32,000 bases of DNA. It comes from Nitrospinales bacterium. Lineage in GTDB: Bacteria > Nitrospinota > Nitrospinia > Nitrospinales > JAJDAT01. The position numbers were made by a program, and so were the translations under genes. The DNA lies in NCBI GenBank assembly GCA_038154245.1, contig JAYOZP010000004.1:78666-110665 (forward strand), read 5' to 3'. This document shows positions 4,380-25,695 of this stretch, in pieces; within the stretch, counting starts at the first letter, position 1; every line of letters begins with the position of its first letter. Under the pieces are notes generated by a model. It searched no databases, was not told the DNA's origin, and saw only the letters and a program-made list of their open reading frames with translations.

Positions 4380-4901
4380 CTAGTGGTTCCATGGATCTTT
4401 CATTGGAATCCAACGTGGAACGTTATCCTTATATTTCAAATAAGAATCGCCAAACCTACCCGTTAACTCGGGTTCTTCCAATAAAGGCACATAAATTAAA
4501 TTTGCCGCCACAAAAAATAGCCCCCAACCAAAAATTAAATATGATCTAAAAAGAATAGCCTCTCCAAATAAGACGGAAAAAACTCCAATCATCATTGGAT
4601 TCCGCACATACCGATATAATCCTTTAACGACAAAGTTTTTTGGCGGGTCATAAGGCGCTGGAGTGCCGTCGCCGTAGCTAGTAAATAATGCCACTGTTTT
4701 ATAAATACCAATACCGCCTAGAGCTATTAAAATAAAGCCAAATACTATGGAAAACCATGAGAATATAAAAACATCGTTTTCAAACCAAATCATAGCTGCC
4801 GGAATAGTCCCCATCACATTAAATGGGAAAATAAAAAAAGCCACTATCAAACTTTTAGTGATTTTCATAAAAAACGAATCAAGTTTAAAAACATTCTGCA
4901 A
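4380..4901 (-). CDS. Isoprenylcysteine carboxyl / phospholipid methyltransferase (ICMT/PEMT) family membrane protein
   Basis: 173-aa ORF with multiple hydrophobic helices and the family motif YRYVRNPMMIG. The internal Met (MKITK..., start at 4868) is an alternative start. Confidence 0.8.
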   Translation of the reverse strand: MQNVFKLDSFFMKITKSLIVAFFIFPFNVMGTIPAAMIWFENDVFIFSWFSIVFGFILIALGGIGIYKTVALFTSYGDGTPAPYDPPKNFVVKGLYRYVRNPMMIGVFSVLFGEAILFRSYLIFGWGLFFVAANLIYVPLLEEPELTGRFGDSYLKYKDNVPRWIPMKDPWNH

Positions 4902-4916
4902 CTTTAAGAAAATTTA

Positions 4917-5096
4917 TCAGATTTCAGAATCCTCATTTTTCTTTTCTCTAGTTTCTTCAAAAGAATGTCTTTGCTTAAATCGTTTAAGCAGTATTTTGGC
5001 TGAATCGCTTTTTCTATCAAAGGGTAAAGCATGTCGTTGCCCCTTACGGTCGGCAAGTTTTGTTTTTTCTTCTTTTCCTTTTTTATTTTCCGTCAT
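4917..5096 (-). CDS. Small highly charged protein (59 aa), hypothetical
   Basis: Hand-translated: MTENKKGKEEKTKLADRKGQRHALPFDRKSDSAKILLKRFKQRHSFEETREKKNEDSEI. It has ATG and TGA with a weak purine-rich stretch upstream. It sits between the kinase and the ICMT-like gene on the same strand. I recognise no family. Confidence 0.25.
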   Translation of the reverse strand: MTENKKGKEEKTKLADRKGQRHALPFDRKSDSAKILLKRFKQRHSFEETREKKNEDSEI

Positions 5097-5250
5097 TCAA
5101 CTTCTCTCAGATATTATTCTGCCTTTATTTTATCACGCCTGGAAAATATGGCTAATTGGGAATGACGCAATAAATGAATTTATAAAGTTTAGAAAAAAAA
5201 GAGGCGAACCATTGAAATCCAGATAAACCAAGCTTTTAAAAATTAGCCAA

Positions 5251-8200
5251 CTATACCTTAGGATGACTTTTATCAAATTGATTTATGAACTCCATCATTC
5301 CTTCTGTATCATAATTATTCAGATGTTCTCTTAACTTATCGGCTACTTTCAAACATTCTCCGTCTATACTTTCTACTTCTTTTAAAAGGTTTTCAATTTG
5401 GGTAACGCTGCACAACTCAACAGCTTCTTTAAGAAGATCTAAAATTTCACGGGAAATCTGAACTTTAGAAATATCAAGGGAAGAAACAGCTTTTGCTTCA
5501 ACTTCTTTATTTTCCTCAAAAGTGAATTCAATAGGCAATAATTTGGCTATCGAGCCTACTAGTTTTTCAATGCGAAAAGGCTTTGTCAAAAAGTCGTCAC
5601 ATCCAGAATCCAGAGCGGTTTTTCGTTTTTCCTCCAAACCTAAAGCTGTAACTGCTACTATTTTTAACTGCGAAGAAGGATTACTTTTTCTAATCTCCCT
5701 AGTCGCTTCTATCCCATCCATCTCTGGCATCAAAATATCCATAAAAACGATATCAAACTTCATTTTTTGAACTAATTCTATGGCATCCTTTGCTCCCGAA
5801 GAAACTTGAACGTCAATACCTAAGTCTCTTAAAACTCCCGCTAATATATCTCTATTTGTTTCAATGTCGTCAACCACTAAGGCTTTTAGCTCTTGCCCTT
5901 TGGCTATGCGTAAAACTTCGGAAGCCCGTTTAGAACGCGAACTTGAATTAGGTTTCGCTTGGCTTGGCAAAAGCGGTAAAGAAAAGAAAAATCTAGTTCC
6001 AAAACCGATTTTTGATTCTAACTCTAAATTTCCACCCAGAAGCCTAACTTGATTTTGAACAATAGCTAACCCTAGTCCAGTTCCGCCTTTTTTTAATCCT
6101 TCTTCATGTTGCCGAAAAAATTCGAATAAAGATTTTTGAGCTTCTTCGGAAATCCCGTGCCCAGTATCGGCAATTTCGAAACGATATAAATTAGGTCCTT
6201 TATTATCGACAAAAAAAGTAATCTGACCAGAGTCTGTAAACTTTACAGAATTGCCCAATAAATTAATCAATATTTGCCTCAATTTAGTTTCGTCGCCCTG
6301 AACCATAATAAAGTTATTTTCCAGGCCTCTAAAATTCCATTTTAATTTTTTCTGCGCGCACTGATTTTCAAAGTAATCCGTAATTCCATTAACTAGCTCT
6401 ATTAAATCAAAATCTGTAGGATACACCTCCATCCTGCCCGCTTCGATTTTTGAAATATCAAGAACATCGTTAATTAATTTTAATAAATGGTCTCCAGATC
6501 GCATAATGGTTTTAATACTTTTGAGTTGATCTGGGTTCAAGTTTTTTTGTCTTTGTAGAATTTGAGCATATCCCAAAATTGCATTTAACGGAGTTCGGAT
6601 TTCGTGGCTCATATTTGCCAGAAATGCGCTTTTGGTTCTATTCGCCACCTCCGCATCGTTTTTTGCCTGCTGAAGTTCTTCTTCCGAAATTTTTCGATCA
6701 TGAATATCTTGTAGTGAACCAGCCATTCTGGTGGGTTTACCACCTTCATCGCGGATGGTATCGCCCTTGGCATGAAACCATCTATATTCTCCCGATTTAG
6801 TTTTTAAACGGTATTCAATATCAAATGGAACATTTCTTTCGGAATGTTCTTTTACCGCCTCAACGGTGCGAGGTAAATCCGTTGGGTGCAATAATTTCTT
6901 GAATTGTGAATAACTTGCTTCGATTTCTTCAAACTCATATCCCAACAAATTGTAAAATTGAGGAGACCACCACTCTTTATCATTTGCAAGGTTAGGCCAA
7001 TCCCAGATTCCTTCATTCGACCCATTAATGGCCAAATCAAGGCGCTGTTGTATTTCTACTAGCTTTTTATTGGTGTCTTCAATCGCTTTGGTTTTTTCTT
7101 CGACAAGATTTTCCAGATGATCTTGGTAATTTCTAAGTTCACCCCTAGCCTTGGCATGCTCGTCAACTTCACGCTCCAAAGTCTGATTTGTTGATTTCAA
7201 ATCTTCCGCCTGTCGCCTAGCTTTTTGGGCAAAATAAGCCGCTAATCCTAAAAGACAAGCCATCAACATTCCCGCTATTAAAACAACAAATGGCAATGGA
7301 GATTTCTTTTGAAGCATAAAATCTTCTTGCGGCCAAAGCTTTAAGCGCCAACGCAATGCAAGTAAATTTACTTCGTCGGAAAATTCCCATGCGACTAAAA
7401 TATTGTTGTCTTTATTCAAGCTATAAATTTCACGCTCAGCCGATAAAACAGAAAAACTAAATTCCTCAGTATTCGTCCCAAAAATAATGGAATCCCAGAA
7501 CTTTTTCGCATTACCGCTTAGCAGAAAAAAACCGTCGAATTTTTTATCCAGGTAAACGGGAACATAAAGCAAAAATATTGGCGCTTCGATCTCTGGAAAT
7601 ATTCCAATAACTTGCGATAGTTTTTGGTCTTTTGAATCGGTCAACTGAGGCTTAATTTTTGATAAAATCTTATCAAAAGTTTTTTCAGGCAATCCGGTAT
7701 TTAAAACCCATTTCGTATCTAAAGAAGAATCCAACCAAGCTATGGAATCAAACCCTCCATGATCTGCAAAAAAATTTCTAAATTCTTGTTCCAGTTCTTC
7801 CTTCGAAATCCGTTTTCTACTTTCCCATCTACCTGCAAACCTTTCCATGTAAGTCAACTTATTAGCCAATTCTGATTGGGCTTCCGACCGAATTTTCCCA
7901 ATTTCACTCTCAAACAACCTTTTGAATTGTTGATCCTGTTGTAGATTAAGCGAATGCGACATAAAAACAGAAGCCGCCATTAAACTACCTGCAAGAGTTA
8001 TTGGAATGGTTAAAAATTTGAATGGTTTCATCTTATCTGTTTTAGTGAGCCTAAAAATTTTAGATCCAAGACCAAAACCAGATTTATAAATCTTAGTCCG
8101 ATTCACATTCAATCTCAATTTTCCCCCTTCAAAAAACAAAAAAATCATCCCTCCCTTTTTGAAGAAGATTGGGTCGTCGCTAACCGTCAAAACTCTCTTC

Positions 8201-8586
8201 CCTTTATCTCGCGTTAAAAACTCCAAGGCCAATCGATCTAAAGTTCCAAAATAAACGATGTGGCAATCCCCTAACTCTGTAAGTTGCGAAACATACCTTA
8301 CATTAAATGGGCGCTCGGTCTCCAAGGTTTGAATTAATTCCAATTCATTCTTAAATGAGGTAAGCCCGTAAACGCAAACATTAGAGGACGAAATTTCGAG
8401 GTTATTAGTCGAAGAGCTAGGCCACGTAACATAATCAAATATTTGATATAAAAAAACTGCCTTGGTTTTCCTCTTGATACTTTCTGTATCTGCGAAAGCG
8501 GAATTAGTCCAAAATCCAACGAAAAACGTCGCAACAATTAAACCCCATATCAAAATGGGAAATCTTTGTTTATTTTTTGAGTTCAA
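5251..8586 (-). CDS. Hybrid sensor histidine kinase: signal peptide, YfiR-like (DUF4154) domain, TM, CHASE-like periplasmic domain, TM, coiled coil, PAS, HisKA, HATPase_c, REC, helical tail
   Basis: 1111-aa ORF with a TTG start at 8586 preceded by AGGA at 8 nt. Domain motifs:
- YfiR-like: AVFLYQIFDYVTWP ... RVLTVSDD ... GGMIFLF ... LRLNVN.
- H-box: FLANMSHEIRTPLNAILGY.
- G-boxes: DTGHGI and GGTGLGLAI.
- Receiver: LVVDDIETNR ... DIVFMDILMPEMDG. Confidence 0.9.
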   Translation of the reverse strand: MNSKNKQRFPILIWGLIVATFFVGFWTNSAFADTESIKRKTKAVFLYQIFDYVTWPSSSTNNLEISSSNVCVYGLTSFKNELELIQTLETERPFNVRYVSQLTELGDCHIVYFGTLDRLALEFLTRDKGKRVLTVSDDPIFFKKGGMIFLFFEGGKLRLNVNRTKIYKSGFGLGSKIFRLTKTDKMKPFKFLTIPITLAGSLMAASVFMSHSLNLQQDQQFKRLFESEIGKIRSEAQSELANKLTYMERFAGRWESRKRISKEELEQEFRNFFADHGGFDSIAWLDSSLDTKWVLNTGLPEKTFDKILSKIKPQLTDSKDQKLSQVIGIFPEIEAPIFLLYVPVYLDKKFDGFFLLSGNAKKFWDSIIFGTNTEEFSFSVLSAEREIYSLNKDNNILVAWEFSDEVNLLALRWRLKLWPQEDFMLQKKSPLPFVVLIAGMLMACLLGLAAYFAQKARRQAEDLKSTNQTLEREVDEHAKARGELRNYQDHLENLVEEKTKAIEDTNKKLVEIQQRLDLAINGSNEGIWDWPNLANDKEWWSPQFYNLLGYEFEEIEASYSQFKKLLHPTDLPRTVEAVKEHSERNVPFDIEYRLKTKSGEYRWFHAKGDTIRDEGGKPTRMAGSLQDIHDRKISEEELQQAKNDAEVANRTKSAFLANMSHEIRTPLNAILGYAQILQRQKNLNPDQLKSIKTIMRSGDHLLKLINDVLDISKIEAGRMEVYPTDFDLIELVNGITDYFENQCAQKKLKWNFRGLENNFIMVQGDETKLRQILINLLGNSVKFTDSGQITFFVDNKGPNLYRFEIADTGHGISEEAQKSLFEFFRQHEEGLKKGGTGLGLAIVQNQVRLLGGNLELESKIGFGTRFFFSLPLLPSQAKPNSSSRSKRASEVLRIAKGQELKALVVDDIETNRDILAGVLRDLGIDVQVSSGAKDAIELVQKMKFDIVFMDILMPEMDGIEATREIRKSNPSSQLKIVAVTALGLEEKRKTALDSGCDDFLTKPFRIEKLVGSIAKLLPIEFTFEENKEVEAKAVSSLDISKVQISREILDLLKEAVELCSVTQIENLLKEVESIDGECLKVADKLREHLNNYDTEGMMEFINQFDKSHPKV

Positions 8587-8595
8587 AATAAATTC

Positions 8596-10530
8596 CTAAA
8601 ATTTGAAAGTGGCGCCGCCAAAAACGCCAATTCCCCGACGCAACGGAAAGGTATTAGTTCTACGGGAAAAACTGTCCGGAAAATACACGTCTTCATCTAA
8701 TACATTATCTATAAACAAATTAAGCGCGATATTAGGAATTTCCACCTGCGGTAAAGACTTAGCAAGCTCTAACTCCCCTTTAAACGTTAGCCAATTGTAA
8801 GCATCCGCATCTGGATTGTCCGATGAAGCGGAAGCAATATTCGCAGCGTCTCCAAAATAGCTATTAAATACGCCTACTGAATATCCCTTTGGAGACTCGT
8901 AAGAAAACCCTACCTTCGCCATTTTGTTTGGCACAAAGCCAACATCTTGATTACCACTTTGATTTTCATTTGTTTGATAGCTCAAAGATCCCGTTAATAA
9001 CCAACCAGGAAAGGGATGCGCTTTCCACTCCCACTCCACTCCTTGGAAATCTATTTGCTCGGAGTTGATTATAGTTCCGGAACTAATCTGGGTAGGTCCT
9101 TCTAATTCGCTTACATAATAAGTTAAGGCTGTATAAACTTTTGGCGCGTTATAAAATATTTGCGCATTAAATGTTTTAATTTCTTCCGGCTGAAGATTTG
9201 GGTTTCCCTTTAAAAAAGGTCGATTTACTGACTGTTCTGCGGAAAACGGGGAACGAAACGCTTCGCCATAAAGTAATTTCATTCCAATTTGATCGTTCAA
9301 TTGTGCTGTAATTCCAAAGCGCGGGGTTACATTAAAATCGTTGCCTTCCGGTTTACTAACATTAAAACCGGCTATTAACTTCAAAAATTGCAAGGGTTGA
9401 TAATCCGCCTGCGTATAATAATTAAATCGGTCATTGGTGTAAGGAATAGTTCCATTTTGTAAAGCTCCATCCAATCTTTGATAAATAAACCCAGATATAA
9501 AATTGAAACTTTCAAAAAGCTCGCCGCCAACGGAAACTTCATACAGCAAATCATTAAAGTCAAAATCGCTTCCTAGATTATTGGTAAAATTCAAACCGTT
9601 GTATGTTAAATTTGCAGTCGTCTTCAATTGGGTTTGAAATGTATATTCGTATTGAAGATCCCAAAAGTTTCTAAGAAGTTTTTCTTTATCACCGGCAGGT
9701 TGGAATCCATTTAAATTAAAAGTGGTATCTCTCTTAAACCCTGTAAACCCAGTGAGAGAAAAGTTTTTATATTGAGCGACTCCAGTAACGCCATAATTTT
9801 TTTCGCTAAAATCGTCCGTTATAGTGTTTCCATTTGGATCGTTGATCAGAAAATTCCATCCGTCGCTTTCCAAATACTTTCCTGAAACTAAAAACTTTAG
9901 ATCTCCCATTTGGTTACCAAGTAAACCAGAAGCTTGACTTGTATTGTCAATGCCATATCCTGCAGAAATCTCATTCGCATGATACTCTTCTGGGTTTTTG
10001 GTAATTACATTGATCGCTCCCGCTAAGGCGTTTGTTCCATATAAAACGGAACCAGGCCCTCTCACCATTTCGATTCGTTCAATAATTTCTAAGGGAATCG
10101 CTCGATAAAAGGCCATATTGTGACCTCCCGAAAAGGAATCACGCATTGGCCTTCCGTTTAAAAGTACCAACGATTTATTATCTGTAATATTAAGTTGTTG
10201 ACCGCGAATAGCTGTACCGTTATCCCGTAAAAATGTCGTTGCGTAGCGATAGGTATTTGGTAAACGCGACAAAACGTCTCCTAAATTATTGCCTCCAAAT
10301 TTTTCAATCTCTTCAGAGGTAATTACTGTAATTATTCCAGGAGCTTCGGAAATAGACTCTTCTCTCTTCGAAGCTACAGAGACAGAAAGTTCTTCAATAT
10401 CCAACGCCAGCATTTCTTGGATTGTAGGATCTTGGAGTTTAGAAGATTCTGCTTCAACTCCGTGTGGGCATACATGGATAATAAAAATAAATAAAAAAAG
10501 GGCGCTTAAATTTCTAAAGGAGGAATTCAT
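8596..10530 (-). CDS. TonB-dependent outer-membrane receptor (short, 644 aa)
   Basis: Signal peptide; plug motifs EAPGIITVITSEEIEKFGGNNLGDVLSRLPN and VRGPGSVLYGTNALAGAINVITK; beta-barrel-like alternating sequence; C-terminal aromatic FKF. The TAG stop overlaps the AGGA ribosome-binding site of the downstream kinase, with a 9-nt gap. Confidence 0.9.
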   Translation of the reverse strand: MNSSFRNLSALFLFIFIIHVCPHGVEAESSKLQDPTIQEMLALDIEELSVSVASKREESISEAPGIITVITSEEIEKFGGNNLGDVLSRLPNTYRYATTFLRDNGTAIRGQQLNITDNKSLVLLNGRPMRDSFSGGHNMAFYRAIPLEIIERIEMVRGPGSVLYGTNALAGAINVITKNPEEYHANEISAGYGIDNTSQASGLLGNQMGDLKFLVSGKYLESDGWNFLINDPNGNTITDDFSEKNYGVTGVAQYKNFSLTGFTGFKRDTTFNLNGFQPAGDKEKLLRNFWDLQYEYTFQTQLKTTANLTYNGLNFTNNLGSDFDFNDLLYEVSVGGELFESFNFISGFIYQRLDGALQNGTIPYTNDRFNYYTQADYQPLQFLKLIAGFNVSKPEGNDFNVTPRFGITAQLNDQIGMKLLYGEAFRSPFSAEQSVNRPFLKGNPNLQPEEIKTFNAQIFYNAPKVYTALTYYVSELEGPTQISSGTIINSEQIDFQGVEWEWKAHPFPGWLLTGSLSYQTNENQSGNQDVGFVPNKMAKVGFSYESPKGYSVGVFNSYFGDAANIASASSDNPDADAYNWLTFKGELELAKSLPQVEIPNIALNLFIDNVLDEDVYFPDSFSRRTNTFPLRRGIGVFGGATFKF

Positions 10531-10854: not shown

Positions 10855-13800
10855 ATGAAACCAAATAGATCTAAACAATCCGATATTTCGGATATCCAAT
10901 CAAATAAAAACCTAAAACAAGCGATCATTATTTTTCTATCGACTGTTTTAGTTCTTGTTTCTTTGAGCGAATTCTTTATTTATCGAGTTATTGAAGGTCA
11001 GAAAAGCGGAGCCCACATAATCAACATCGCGGGTCGACAAAGGATGCTGAGCCAACAATTGGGCAAAGCTGTACTCCAATTTCAAATTCTAAAATCAGAC
11101 GCTGAAAAATCAAAAGCAAAAGCTAGGATCGAATATATAATCAACATTTTAAACCGCGTGCATTATGGGCTTCAGCAAGGAGATCGTGATTTAAACCTAG
11201 CGCAAAAACCAAGCTCTAAAATTCTTAGGCTCTACTTAGAAATAAATCCAGTTTTCACAAAAATTGAAACTATTACTAAAGACATCGTTTCTTTTCCGTC
11301 GTCTAACGAAGGGTTATCTAACGTCGTTATAGTTCTCCTAGATCAGCTTGATTTATTTTTGGCTCAGATGAATCAAATAGTAAATCAATACGAAAACGAA
11401 CATCGTGAAAATCAAAATTTTCTTAGTTTAATTGAACCTGTTAAATTTATTTTCTTGGCGGGCTCTTTAATTGGGATCAGTTTCTTTATTCTCTTTCCAG
11501 CTATTAGAAAAAATTCGGAAGCATTCAGCAAGATGAAGGAGTCTGAAGAAAAACTGGTCACCCAAAAGAAAGAGCTAGAAAATTGGAGCGCAAACTTAGA
11601 AAAATTCGTCGATAAACGCACAAAACAAATTGATCTTTTAAGAGAAATCGCTATCGAAATTCAAAACGAAACCAATTTCAATCGAGCCATTCAAACTTGC
11701 TTAGATCTTGTATGTGAATATATTAACTGGCCTGTTGGTCACGCTTATCTTGTAGAGGATGAAAAACGCCTAATTCCTAGTAACTTTTGGCACATCCAAA
11801 ACCAAAGCCGCTACAAGAAATTTAGAGAGGTGACCCAAAAGACTTCATTCCAACTAGGCGAAGGGCTTCCTGGAGAAGCATGGAAAACCAAAAGCGTCGT
11901 TTGGTTCGATAACATTAAGGAAGCGACCAATTTCTCTCGAAATAAAATGACAGGAGACTTATTGGTTCAATCGGGTTTTGCTGTTCCCATCGAAAATGAA
12001 AATGGAAACATACTAGCCGTTTTAGAGTTTTTTAACGATCAAACCGAAAAATGCGATCCAAGCCTAGTTCATGTTATGGAAAACCTGAGTCTTCAGTTTA
12101 AGCAAGCTCGAGCTCGGTTACAAAAAGACGGTATCGTAAAAATGTTAGTTGAAAATATGGTCGACGGCCTTATTACCATTGACGAAAAGGGTTCCATCAT
12201 TTCCTTTAACCCAGCTGCAGAAAAGATTTTTGGATATTCATCCGGACAAATCATTGGAGAAAATATAAAGACGTTAATACCTGATGGGTTTTATTCTGAG
12301 CATAGCCAAGACTTAACAGATTATTTAAAACATGAACGCACAATAGATATTGAACAAGAAGTCGTTGGATTACGCAACGATGGCAGCAAATTCCCTTGCG
12401 AACTGGCCATTGCCGAAGTATGGACAGACCAACGCAAACTATTTACTGGAACAGTTAGGGACATTTCAATAAGAAAACAGCGCGAGGACGAACTTGAAAA
12501 AGCTAAAATAGAAGCAGAGTCTTCTAATCAAACTAAAAGCCTTTTTTTGGCAAATATGAGTCATGAAATCCGAACTCCAATGAATGCGATATTAGGTTAT
12601 TCGCAAATATTACTACGTAATAAAAACCTTACGTCTGAACAAAAAGAGGCTTTACAAACTATTTCTTTAAATGGAGAGAATCTATTAAGTCTAATAAACG
12701 ATATTCTTAATTTGTCTAGAATTGATACGAACGAAACGGAAATAAATTCAGTCGACTTTTGCTTGGAAGAGCTCTTACAAGGGTTAAAATTTAAATTTCA
12801 AAATCTGTGTAAACAAAAGAAAATCTACATTCAAATAGAGGGTATTGAGAACTCCTTACCAGTTCATGGCGACGAAATTAAATTAAGACAAATTCTTTCT
12901 AATTTAATCGAAAACGCTATTAAATTCACGTACCAGGGAGGAATCCTTATTAAAGTCGTAAGACAATCTACGGACCATTATCAATTCATGATAAAAGATT
13001 CAGGAAAAGGAATTCCTCTAGAAGCTCAGAAAACAATCTTTCATCCGTTTCAACAAGAAACTGGCGGCGAAGCCAAGGGAGGAACCGGTCTGGGCTTAGC
13101 GATTTGTAAAAAACAAGTTGCGCTTTTAGGGGGAGAAATTACTTTTGATTCTATTATTGGAAAAGGCTCTAGTTTTTATTTTACTCTCCACTTACCTCAT
13201 GCTGAAAACGAAGTGGCAAAAAGATCTAATCGAGACAAAAACATTAGCCATTTAAAAACCGGTTATCAAGTCGAGGCGCTTATTGTCGACGACAAAAAAG
13301 AAGATAGAGACGTACTGGAAAAACTACTATCGGATGTGGGTATAGAGTCTGTTCAAGCGGAAGACGGGAAGACCGCCGTTTCTCTATACAAAGATAATCG
13401 ACCCGATATAGTTTTCATGGATATTCGAATGCCAGTTATGAACGGAGCGGAAACTTTAAACTTATTAAAAAAAGAATTTTCTTCTAATGCTTTGAAAACT
13501 ATTATTGTCTCCGCTTATTTGTCAAAAAATGAGAAGGAACAATTTTCTAACCTAGGCTGCACAGAATTTGTCGACAAACCATTTCGTGCGGAACACGTTT
13601 TTGCTAGCGTCCAAAGCTTACTTAACATCGAGTTTGAATATGAAGAGGATGAAACTGAAATAGAAGTTTTCTCTGCCGAGGAAATAGATTATTCACAGAT
13701 TATAATGTCTAAAAAACTATTAAATCAATTGTCGGAAGCCGCCAACTTAAATAACATCACAAAAATTGAAGAAGGTTTAAACATGTTTGAACCGAGGACA

Positions 13801-13905
13801 ACCGCAGAAGAAGTTTTTTTAAAGACGCTAAAAAACCATGCAAAAGATTATGATATGGAGAGTTTTGAACAAACCCTAAGTAATCTAAATTTATCTTCCC
13901 GCTAA
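10855..13905 (+). CDS. Hybrid sensor histidine kinase: TM, PilJ/NarX-type four-helix sensor, TM, GAF, PAS, HisKA, HATPase_c, REC, helical tail
   Basis: 1016-aa ORF. The sensor has a P-box-like [17 protein letters not shown] between two hydrophobic helices. Other motifs: [25 protein letters not shown] and GGTGLGLAI; receiver [10 protein letters not shown] ... [14 protein letters not shown]. Confidence 0.9.
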   Translation: [1016 protein letters not shown]

Positions 13906-22505: not shown

Positions 22506-22985
22506 ATGAACCAAATAGTTTCAATAAACCGCAAACCAAAAATACAAACTCCAAAAGTTGATTTCGATCCTGAACTTGTAATTTTCAACTATTGGACAGC
22601 TATACTTCATTTTGAAAACAAACTAACTACAGAAATTCAAAAAAGAGGAAAAGTATTTTATTTAGATGATATGAGTCAACAACAAACAGAATTATCAGCT
22701 CCGGAAAAAACAACCATCATCTGGAAGAACGATAACGATTCGGCCGTTTTAAATTTTTCAATCTTCTCTAAAGAAACGTCTCTTGAAATTTTTTGTCTAA
22801 AACTTTTCCCATCAAAAAATTCAATCAAATTAGAATTTAAAAAATCGGGCGACTACTTTTTCAAATACAGGGAACAGAACACTCAGACCGTAACAAAAGG
22901 GAAATTAGAAATCATTTCTTCAGTCAATAGTCAAAACCATCAAACCAAGAATTTAAGCTCCGATTTAAAATCAACCTGGTACTGA
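22506..22985 (+). CDS. Hypothetical protein (orphan-like)
   Basis: 159-aa ORF with no TM segment, signal or recognisable motif. The local sequence is very AT-rich (about 30 percent GC on a hand-counted 60-nt line). Confidence 0.45.
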   Translation: MNQIVSINRKPKIQTPKVDFDPELVIFNYWTAILHFENKLTTEIQKRGKVFYLDDMSQQQTELSAPEKTTIIWKNDNDSAVLNFSIFSKETSLEIFCLKLFPSKNSIKLEFKKSGDYFFKYREQNTQTVTKGKLEIISSVNSQNHQTKNLSSDLKSTWY

Positions 22986-24651: not shown

Positions 24652-25116
24652 ATGAAGAGAACATTTAAAGAATCGGCCCGAGTGCATTTAGCGCTTAACG
24701 CAAGTCAAATTGATAAATCGATAGAGTTCTATGAAGTTCTGTTTAACGTAAAACCGAGCAAAGTAAAACCCGGGTACGCTAAGTTTGAGGTCGAAAACCC
24801 TCCGGTTAACTTGACGCTGAATGAAGCTAATCAAGTTTCAGGCAATCAAATTAATCACATGGGTATCGAAATTAAAACCGATAGAGGCGTAAAGAATGAA
24901 ATTGAACGTTTCAAAACCCTAGGTTTAGAAACCCGAATTGAGGAAAACACAACCTGTTGTTTTGCAATACAAGATAAAGTGTGGGTTAATGATCCCGATG
25001 GAAACTCCTGGGAAACTTTTGTCGTTTTTGAAGATTCTGATTTACGAGGCGATCAAAATATAGATCCAACTTGCTGCGTCCCCTCGGATGAAACATCAAC
25101 CGCGGGTTGTAGCTAG
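24652..25116 (+). CDS. ArsI/CadI family VOC (glyoxalase-fold) metalloenzyme
   Basis: Close to the ArsI pattern I recall: SIEFY..F...P.KVKPGYAKF, GNQINHMGIE, the vicinal cysteines in TTCCFAIQDKVWVNDPDGNSWE, and a Cys-rich tail PTCCVPSDETSTAGCS. Confidence 0.85.
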   Translation: MKRTFKESARVHLALNASQIDKSIEFYEVLFNVKPSKVKPGYAKFEVENPPVNLTLNEANQVSGNQINHMGIEIKTDRGVKNEIERFKTLGLETRIEENTTCCFAIQDKVWVNDPDGNSWETFVVFEDSDLRGDQNIDPTCCVPSDETSTAGCS

Positions 25117-25143: not shown

Positions 25144-25695
25144 ATGAGTATTGAGGAAGTTTGGAACGACTATGGAAATCTCTTGCGAGGGTTTCTGCTC
25201 TCAAAAGTTAAAAATTCTGAAGATGCAGAAGATTTATTGCAGGAAATTTTAATCAAAACGCATAATAATATGGATTCGTTAAAAGACCCAAAAAAATTTA
25301 AGTCATGGTTGTTCCAAATTGCCCGCAACACTCTAATTGATTACTATCGAAAACCCGACAACATCTTGGTCGATGAATCGCAACTCTTCGATCTCCAGGA
25401 GGAAAGACCCGATACGCAAGAAACAATGCGCCAAGAACTATCGCAATGCATAAAACCCTTTTTAAAATACCTACCGGATAAATATGGCGTAGTCGTAGAC
25501 GCCATAGACATACAAGGCGCTTCTCAAAAAGAGCTCGCCAAGGAGTTAGGATTGTCCTACTCAGCTTTAAAATCAAGGGTTCAGCGAGGACGACAAAAAC
25601 TTGAAGAGATTTTTCAAGAATGCTGTACCTATAAAGTGGACGCACGCGGAAATATAATGGAGTATGAAATTAAGCCTGATTGTTGCGAGTGTTAA
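25144..25695 (+). CDS. sigZ: ECF-type RNA polymerase sigma factor, SigZ-like, with a Cys-rich C-terminus
   Basis: Region 2 (DAEDLLQEILIKTH ... WLFQIARNTLIDYYR) and region 4 (QKELAKELGLSYSALKSRVQRGRQKL). The tail is ECCTYKVDARGNIMEYEIKPDCCEC. It starts 27 nt after the ArsI/CadI stop. Confidence 0.8.
   Translation: MSIEEVWNDYGNLLRGFLLSKVKNSEDAEDLLQEILIKTHNNMDSLKDPKKFKSWLFQIARNTLIDYYRKPDNILVDESQLFDLQEERPDTQETMRQELSQCIKPFLKYLPDKYGVVVDAIDIQGASQKELAKELGLSYSALKSRVQRGRQKLEEIFQECCTYKVDARGNIMEYEIKPDCCEC

Follow-up and report, generated by a model that had tools for sequence, protein, structure and literature searches.

A putative divergent branch of a catalogued triad: TonB-dependent receptor, YfiR-like and hybrid kinase genes in a Nitrospinales bacterium

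Introduction

Do a TonB-dependent receptor (TBDR), a secreted YfiR-like domain and a histidine kinase encoded side by side form one signalling system, and does the kinase carry the YfiR-like domain as part of its own chain? These questions are raised by a 32,000-nucleotide stretch of DNA from a Nitrospinales bacterium (assembly GCA_038154245.1, contig JAYOZP010000004.1, positions 78,666 to 110,665), here called the window, whose own positions are used throughout. On its minus strand, between 10530 and 5251, a receptor gene is followed by a long open reading frame (ORF) that runs from a YfiR-like domain into a hybrid sensor histidine kinase. The explanation that best accounts for the observations as a whole, to which we give a probability of about 0.7, is a three-gene operon on this strand that belongs to a divergent branch of a receptor/YfiR-like/kinase triad, in which the YfiR-like protein would set the activity of the kinase and the receptor would act as its input.

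The 1111-residue reading frame

The first-pass annotation of this DNA had taken the YfiR-like domain for a part of the kinase, and the window does hold a single frame of 1111 amino acids (aa) with a TTG start (8586..5251, minus strand). The related loci say otherwise. Contig L002, the product of a separate sequencing run, shows 2 differences from the window in 1014 bp, namely one single-nucleotide polymorphism and one missing A: it reads ACT AAA CAG ATA AGA TGA where the window reads ACT AAAA CAG ATA AGA TGA, the extra A lying in the AAAA run at 8040..8043 on the minus strand. The frame of L002 ends ...RLTKQIR, at a TGA that overlaps the kinase ATG at 8031, and when the junctions of 13 loci were compared, an ATGA-type stop/start junction was found in every other locus of the clade. 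With one A fewer, the yfiR-like gene of the window (8028..8586, minus strand) stops at the TGA at 8030-8028 and encodes 185 aa, while the kinase gene (5251..8031, minus strand) encodes 926 aa from the ATG at 8031, which accounts for the full length of the fused frame (185 + 926 = 1111).

The YfiR-like relatives are stand-alone proteins without exception (11/11), 161-188 aa long and ending ...FRLTKQIK/R. Their identity to the window protein spans 47-99%, the highest value being that of the L002 contig, which encodes a free 185-aa form (representative P0004), and the others ranging from 47 to 83%. In the syntenic loci L003-L006, a receptor of 643-653 aa is followed after a 9-nt gap by a gene for a 184-aa protein of DUF4154, the family of YfiR, and then, with a 4-nt overlap, by a 926-aa hybrid kinase; the kinase orthologues of L003 and L005 are 70-73% identical to that of the window. 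In the sister locus L007-L010 (47% identical; e.g. L007:10561-12612), the kinase after the YfiR-like gene is cut to 362 aa and abuts an IS110-family transposase, so that the triad appears to have been disrupted there by an insertion sequence. On these comparisons, the fusion seen in the 1111-aa ORF is not native: an extra A joins two genes, and the native arrangement is two genes with an ATGA overlap, the YfiR-like protein being free in the periplasm, as YfiR is in YfiBNR. The 4-nt overlap of the yfiR-like stop with the kinase ATG suggests translational coupling.

In a native fusion, a secreted YfiR-like domain would be tethered to the kinase and regulate it within the same molecule, which we consider highly improbable and largely refuted already. 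The uninterrupted ORF speaks for it, as does the identical junction in a second contig, L001; moreover, other genes of the window look intact and match the lengths of their counterparts in relatives, which speaks against an assembly with errors throughout. Yet the removal of one A restores both the stop and the overlap seen in every relative, including the contig with 2/1014 differences. No second fusion of this kind was encountered either: among 90 loci, DUF4154 and the kinase-gene domains share an ORF only in the window and the identical contig L001, and the best 150 DUF4154 representatives do not exceed 476 aa in length. The topology is also at odds with it. Hydropathy places the hydrophobic segments of the fused protein at residues 9-27, 191-209 and 431-449; the resulting topology is impossible because two membrane spans separate the periplasmic YfiR domain from the cytoplasmic kinase, where an odd number would be needed, and with a signal peptide followed by two spans, one of the two, the Cache domain or the core of the kinase, would be misplaced across the membrane. 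Finally, just beyond the end of the alignment to YfiR comes a methionine, and the sequence from there on (MKPFKFLTIPITLAG... after the methionine) resembles an ordinary sensor-kinase start.

As to the fused allele itself, it is probably a real frameshift variant in the population, an assembly error being a lesser possibility. It is probably a loss-of-function allele, since mis-insertion into the membrane is expected and the stop codon of the 4-nt overlap is lost. An exact-sequence look-up of the fused protein, with the start codon as called on L001, returned no match. That the A-run might cause programmed frameshifting or slippage during transcription was also considered and rejected by reasoning, four A's being too few for slippage and no known +1 shift site being present. 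For annotation, the 1111-aa "YfiR-kinase" should be recorded as a frameshift fusion and should not be spread as a domain architecture. Separately, a TBDR and a DUF4154 protein share one stop-free ORF in an acidobacteriotal locus (L060:7117-9561, plus strand), which may be a frameshift or read-through fusion.

Proteins of the locus

The receptor gene (10530..8596, minus strand, 644 aa; ORF list and Pfam) matches both the Plug family (PF07715, E 6e-22) and the TBDR barrel (PF00593, E 5.5e-17) above the Pfam cut-offs. The Plug domain occupies residues 60-172 (10015..10353, minus strand) and covers profile positions 2-107 of 107. The protein begins with a signal peptide, carries a TonB-box-like segment (LSVSVAS) and ends ...TFKF; it thus combines a Plug and a 22-strand-barrel profile with a TonB-box-like N-terminal strand and a C-terminal aromatic residue, as expected of a TBDR. 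The Plug is preceded by just 59 residues; an N-terminal signalling (STN) extension is absent, and Pfam gives no domain besides Plug and barrel. The receptor is 83-85% identical to those of L003 and L005, and an N-terminal ...LE(E/D)L..V.V(T/S)S.SK... segment is common to it and the TBDRs of the surveyed triads described below.

The receptor gene had been described from the outset as ending 9 nt before the next gene, its stop overlapping a ribosome-binding site, and the sequence agrees exactly: the TAG at 8598-8596 overlaps an AGGA, and the spacer (8587..8595, minus strand) puts the stop 9 nt before the TTG start at 8586. The same spacing is present in L002, L003, L005, L007 and a JGI contig, and the junction TAGGAATT..TTTTG recurs in the relatives L003 and L005.

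The 185-aa protein encoded next has near its N-terminus a hydrophobic stretch that resembles a signal peptide (residues 9-27, by hydropathy), followed by AFA/D. Its DUF4154 domain (PF13689; residues 40-180, window positions 8047-8469) scores 94.6 bits (E 7.8e-27) against a cut-off of 24.9, and the crystal-structure chains of Pseudomonas aeruginosa YfiR (4zhu) align with it end to end (E 4.7e-5; query 24-182 with YfiR 31-185 of 190). The earlier reading of a signal peptide followed by a YfiR/DUF4154-like domain is thereby borne out, and the profile search proposed with it placed the N-terminal part in this family. The best match in NCBIfam is the TOL_0243 YfiR-like family (NF053591, 73.2 bits), while YfiR proper (NF053586, sequest_YfiR) gives 35.9 bits, under its 85-bit cut-off. 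The Cys71/Cys110 pair of YfiR is kept.

The kinase was mapped with Pfam, hydropathy and an AlphaFold2 (AF2) model compared by Foldseek. On the minus strand, a first transmembrane segment (7960-8016), a periplasmic dCache/CHASE-like domain (about 7306-7803) and a second transmembrane segment (7240-7296) precede PAS_3 (6718-6972), HisKA (6436-6633), HATPase_c (5971-6297) and a receiver domain (REC, 5548-5880), so that HisKA, HATPase_c and the C-terminal receiver, all above the Pfam cut-offs, make the protein a hybrid histidine kinase. A tail of 98 aa (5254-5547) follows, in which neither Hpt nor any other Pfam domain was detected at E<=10. The earlier description as a CHASE-like/PAS hybrid kinase was right for PAS_3, HisKA, HATPase_c and REC and holds for the sensor at the level of fold or clan; a direct Pfam match to CHASE (PF03924) is absent even at E<=10. 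The only distant homologues of the sensor that could be detected (24-26% identity, E about 1e-19) carry partial PF03924 matches. In addition, the AF2 model of kinase residues 1-295 (pLDDT 81.5, pTM 0.71) matches dCache/PDC sensors in Foldseek, among them KinD, CqsR, PctC, Mlp24, PcrK of Xanthomonas and the LuxQ chain of a LuxP-LuxQ complex. To call the predicted sensor CHASE-like at the level of the fold, or of the Cache-like clan, is therefore acceptable. Pfam finds no CHASE8, HAMP or GGDEF domain in this kinase.

Conservation of the gene order

The order of the three genes was surveyed in other genomes. A YfiR-like profile of the window clade was searched against 1.84 billion representatives (E<=1e-3), and 14,878 clusters at 50% identity matched it. 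As a DUF4154 alignment of 114 sequences was too diverse for a locus search, a subset of 20 sequences sharing the motif KA[AV]FLYNF was used; scanning one genome per GTDB species for this motif confirmed at least 535 candidates, whose best 80 loci were used. Their domains were mapped with hidden Markov models seeded from the Pfam-verified domains of the window and iterated on six-frame ORFs. The surveyed loci come from about ten phyla, including Acidobacteriota, Verrucomicrobiota, Nitrospirota, Desulfobacterota, Planctomycetota, Gemmatimonadota, Armatimonadota and Bacteroidota, together with Alpha-, Beta- and Gammaproteobacteria. A metagenome scan with the alignment of the window clade confirmed two loci, both already represented; so far, the window clade consists of a handful of contigs from uncultured organisms with about 38% G+C.

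A Plug/TBDR gene lies directly upstream on the same strand in 58 of the 69 loci with at least 2.6 kb of upstream sequence, the remainder having a divergently oriented TBDR (5/69), a TBDR downstream instead (1/69) or none (5/69). Where at least 2.5 kb of downstream sequence was available, the gene directly following encodes a histidine kinase in 58/66 loci and a GGDEF enzyme in 2/66 (together 60/66), and the full triad is present in 44 of the 57 loci with both flanks. Further downstream on the same strand, a REC-GGDEF gene was found in 25 of the 59 loci with at least 6 kb. Intergenic distances are mostly between -13 and +45 nt. The survey thus answers the question of adjacency, earlier named as a point on which the triad could fail: the receptor-DUF4154-kinase order is strongly conserved across many phyla.

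The components themselves are also regular. The receptors are uniform in size, with 575-620 aa from the start of the Plug, which leaves little space for a signalling extension, and all 64 N-termini of the downstream enzymes (64/64) contain CHASE8 and HAMP according to Pfam; the E. coli controls gave CHASE8 and GGDEF for DgcN/YfiN, DUF4154 for YfiR and an OmpA-like domain for YfiB. In L041, L068 and L070, receptor-DUF4154 pairs are duplicated as units before a single kinase. As far as gene order and domain content tell, the main system is very widespread and consists of a TBDR, a YfiR-like protein and a sensor kinase of the CHASE8-HAMP type, after which a REC-GGDEF regulator is often encoded. 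Culturable bearers of the triad include Sphingobium nicotianae (locus L066) and Thalassolituus oleivorans (TOL_0242-0244).

Several loci depart from this layout. In L049 and L087, a single kinase gene is preceded by two receptor genes and two for DUF4154 proteins; the receptor is divergent from the DUF4154 gene in L038, L053, L069, L089 (Verrucomicrobiota), L043 and L067, and it lies downstream of it in L021 and L072. Tandem double-DUF4154 proteins of 340-395 aa make up about 12 of the best 150 representatives (P0016, P0017, P0019, P0023, P0024, P0055, P0063 and others).

Catalogued families

The triad had been put forward as having no assigned function. This is true as far as function is concerned, while the association itself is already catalogued: release 20 of NCBIfam holds a consecutive trio, composed of NF053590 (TOL_0244 family TonB-dependent receptor), NF053591 (TOL_0243 family YfiR-like periplasmic protein) and NF053592 (sensor histidine kinase, YfiR-like protein-associated). 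The surveyed receptors score 578-752 bits on the first (cut-off 645), the YfiR-like proteins 128-168 bits on the second (cut-off 125) and the sensors about 205 bits on the third (cut-off 194; 204.7 for the control, L019). Since the surveyed loci lie at or near the cut-offs of the trio, their association had already been recognized by the curators. The window shares the gene order of the trio, with receptor, YfiR-like protein and sensor enzyme on one strand, separated by the 9-nt gap and, without the fusion, joined by the 4-nt overlap. Lying below all three cut-offs and having neither CHASE8, HAMP nor REC-GGDEF, it is placed in a divergent sister branch. Judged from sequence, the window locus is a divergent variant of a catalogued, experimentally unstudied system.

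Our literature search found no paper describing a TBDR/YfiR-like/kinase triad. As to the receptor that gives its name to the family, the abundance of TOL_0244 was seven-fold higher with the n-C28 alkane than with Tween 80 as the control, and it has 40.3% similarity with the Alcanivorax receptor OmpS (PMC6304351; ompS is B5T_01485 in A. dieselolei), which has been described as essential for sensing alkanes and as triggering chemotaxis to them (PMC9788540). The P. aeruginosa genes PA3268-PA3271, considered as a possible example of the triad, were dropped for want of literature support; PA3271 is discussed with CrbS/R acetate regulation.

Signalling mechanism

Functional coupling of the three proteins is well supported by their conserved order. 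By homology with YfiR-YfiN, the YfiR-like protein would bind the periplasmic sensor domain of the kinase and set its activity, with the receptor presumably supplying the input; as output, the kinase would pass phosphate to a partner whose gene lies outside the locus, a role that falls in many other lineages to a REC-GGDEF cyclase of the same operon.

Several observations weigh against this reading or narrow it. The receptor of the window reaches 88.2 bits against the 645 required by NF053590, over its N-terminal 182 residues only; the YfiR-like protein reaches 73.2 of the 125 bits of NF053591, and the N-terminus of the kinase does not match NF053592 even at E<=10. The sensor is not of the CHASE8 type, and therefore the analogy with YfiR-YfiN is a step weaker here than it is for the main family. 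Also absent is the Cys145-Cys152 pair, reported to be essential for the stability of P. aeruginosa YfiR (PMC4655355), both aligned positions being F, and the AF2 model of the YfiR-like protein, computed with 11 close sequences, was unusable (pLDDT 38). Regarding the survey, conserved adjacency denotes a functional link and is silent on its direction, the link among the three proteins resting on gene context. The 80 loci are those closest to one KA[AV]FLYNF representative, and because the subset sharing this motif was used, the percentages are biased to one large subfamily and do not describe all of the ~15,000 DUF4154 clusters. Lastly, contig L001, 100% identical to the window, also has the AAAA run, although it may derive from the same reads.

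How the receptor might act on the kinase can be pictured in several ways. We tentatively favour ligand import, in which a ligand taken up with TonB energy would be bound by the YfiR-like protein or by the sensor domain, by analogy with LuxP-LuxQ or TorT-TorS but with the outer membrane as a gate for the ligand; it is preferred because the transport features are intact and because YfiR resembles periplasmic ligand-binding domains.

Sequestration is a more doubtful option. Here, as the first-pass annotation had proposed, the occupied receptor would bind the free YfiR-like protein at the outer membrane, thus playing the part of YfiB, and derepress the kinase without any transport of the ligand. 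The adjacency of the two genes across the 9-nt spacer would suit such a relay, as would the duplication of TBDR and DUF4154 genes in pairs and the uniformity of the receptors, which form one dedicated family of small TBDRs across phyla; in YfiBNR, moreover, the surfaces of YfiR that bind YfiB and YfiN overlap (PMC4655355). However, a TBDR and the OmpA-like YfiB share no fold, the receptor has no signalling extension on its periplasmic side, and the conserved TonB-box-like segment fits real transport.

It is quite unlikely that the receptor is instead a co-regulated output, with the YfiR-like protein and the kinase sensing some other envelope signal, as PfeS/PfeR control pfeA. Regulators encoded next to TBDR genes commonly control them, and the receptor, being first in the operon, would be co-transcribed with them. 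Nevertheless, the relay of the main family ends in REC-GGDEF cyclases rather than in DNA-binding regulators, and co-regulation does not usually produce a receptor family of its own that is inherited and duplicated together with DUF4154 over about ten phyla.

If the receptor is indeed the input, these loci would represent an unstudied coupling of arrivals at the outer membrane to phosphorelay and cyclic di-GMP (c-di-GMP) decisions, also in Acidobacteriota, Verrucomicrobiota, Nitrospirota, Planctomycetota and other groups. In the sampled subfamily, most DUF4154 genes are flanked by those of a dedicated TBDR and of a sensor kinase, with a diguanylate cyclase often next in the relay, and the experimental study of DUF4154 branches has so far concerned YfiBNR only. 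More speculatively, and with a low likelihood in our estimation, the triads, spread over at least ten phyla, could be a very common third way in which TonB-dependent receptors signal from the cell surface: a soluble YfiR-like adaptor would be captured or released and so convey receptor occupancy to an inner-membrane kinase, with no sigma/anti-sigma pair and usually leading to c-di-GMP synthesis. If so, the window clade would show this adaptor re-wired from CHASE8 to dCache/CHASE-type sensors.

Surroundings of the locus

The first-pass annotation had seen no cognate response regulator or Hpt gene in the window and no extracytoplasmic function (ECF) sigma/anti-sigma pair beside the receptor. Both statements stand: in the window ORFs scanned with Pfam, NCBIfam and a REC model, there is no receiver outside the two kinases, no Hpt family member and no neighbouring ECF sigma/anti-sigma pair (the ORFs at 228-602 and 22506-22985 were covered by NCBIfam instead of Pfam and by the REC model, and the region below 2330, an ORF running off the window, lay outside the family-library scans). 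The only ECF sigma factor, SigZ-like (25144-25695), is 15 kb away. Likewise, no OmpA-family protein is encoded by the ORFs scanned with Pfam or, for the two just mentioned, with NCBIfam alone, and it is the TBDR that occupies the adjacent position; no REC-GGDEF gene lies near or downstream of the kinase. Rfam gave no match in the window, and the numbers of promoter and terminator sites predicted there do not exceed those in shuffled sequence.

The second of the two kinases, also a hybrid histidine kinase (10855-13905, plus strand; PilJ-GAF-PAS-HisKA-HATPase-REC), is divergent from the receptor gene; it is present in L005 and absent in L003. Like the first, it has a tail of ~100 aa without a Pfam match, and the idea of an Hpt domain in these tails was rejected, as neither kinase gives a match at E<=10. 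On the other side of the locus, a very basic ORF of 59 aa (4917-5096, minus strand) lies between the kinase and a PEMT-family gene and may be a real small protein, since a gene of 59 aa is called at the same position in L003-L006. A low-complexity ORF of 159 aa (4747-5226, plus strand), antisense to the PEMT gene and to the 59-aa ORF, has no counterpart called in relatives and is probably spurious. Farther away, the segment 24652-27539 encodes an ArsI/CadI-family metalloenzyme (24652-25116), the SigZ-like factor, EthD, MOSC and cytochrome P460 (27057-27539) proteins, and shows no connection to the receptor locus.

Comparison with known systems

Among the known systems that couple TBDRs to regulation, FecA-FecR-FecI differs in that the window receptor lacks the N-terminal signalling domain and has no ECF sigma/anti-sigma pair as a neighbour, while PfeA with PfeS/PfeR and the Pir systems have no counterpart of the YfiR-like periplasmic protein that is interposed here. 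In LuxP-LuxQ and TorT-TorS, as proposed for the window, a hybrid kinase is under the control of a soluble protein of the periplasm that acts on its tandem-PAS/dCache sensor, and the LuxQ periplasmic domain is among the structural matches of the window sensor; in contrast, their soluble partners are two-lobe binding proteins, whereas the YfiR-like protein has a single lobe, and LuxPQ and TorTS have no dedicated outer-membrane receptor.

The closest likeness is with the NCBIfam trio, which shares the three components, their order, strand and tight spacing, the best match of the YfiR-like protein, and the N-terminal segment and Plug of the receptor. The differences lie in the sensor, which in the window is dCache/CHASE-like and followed by PAS_3 instead of being CHASE8-HAMP, in the lack of a REC-GGDEF gene downstream, and in scores under the cut-offs.

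Compared with YfiBNR (also TpbB; Pseudomonas, E. coli, and HmsCDE in Yersinia), the window locus likewise has a secreted DUF4154 gene immediately before that of an inner-membrane enzyme with a Cache-clan sensor, an outer-membrane partner in the same operon, and the Cys71/Cys110 pair. Nevertheless, this partner is a TBDR encoded first, instead of the OmpA-like lipoprotein YfiB encoded last; a hybrid histidine kinase stands in the place of the GGDEF cyclase YfiN (CHASE8-HAMP-GGDEF); the sensor is not CHASE8; and Cys145/Cys152 are missing. In YfiBNR, YfiR is reported to act on a CHASE8-type sensor module (PMC4655355), and since the main-family enzyme has CHASE8-HAMP as in YfiN, YfiR-type periplasmic control is a reasonable inference for that family. 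In its gene order, the OmpA-like YfiB is replaced by a TBDR.

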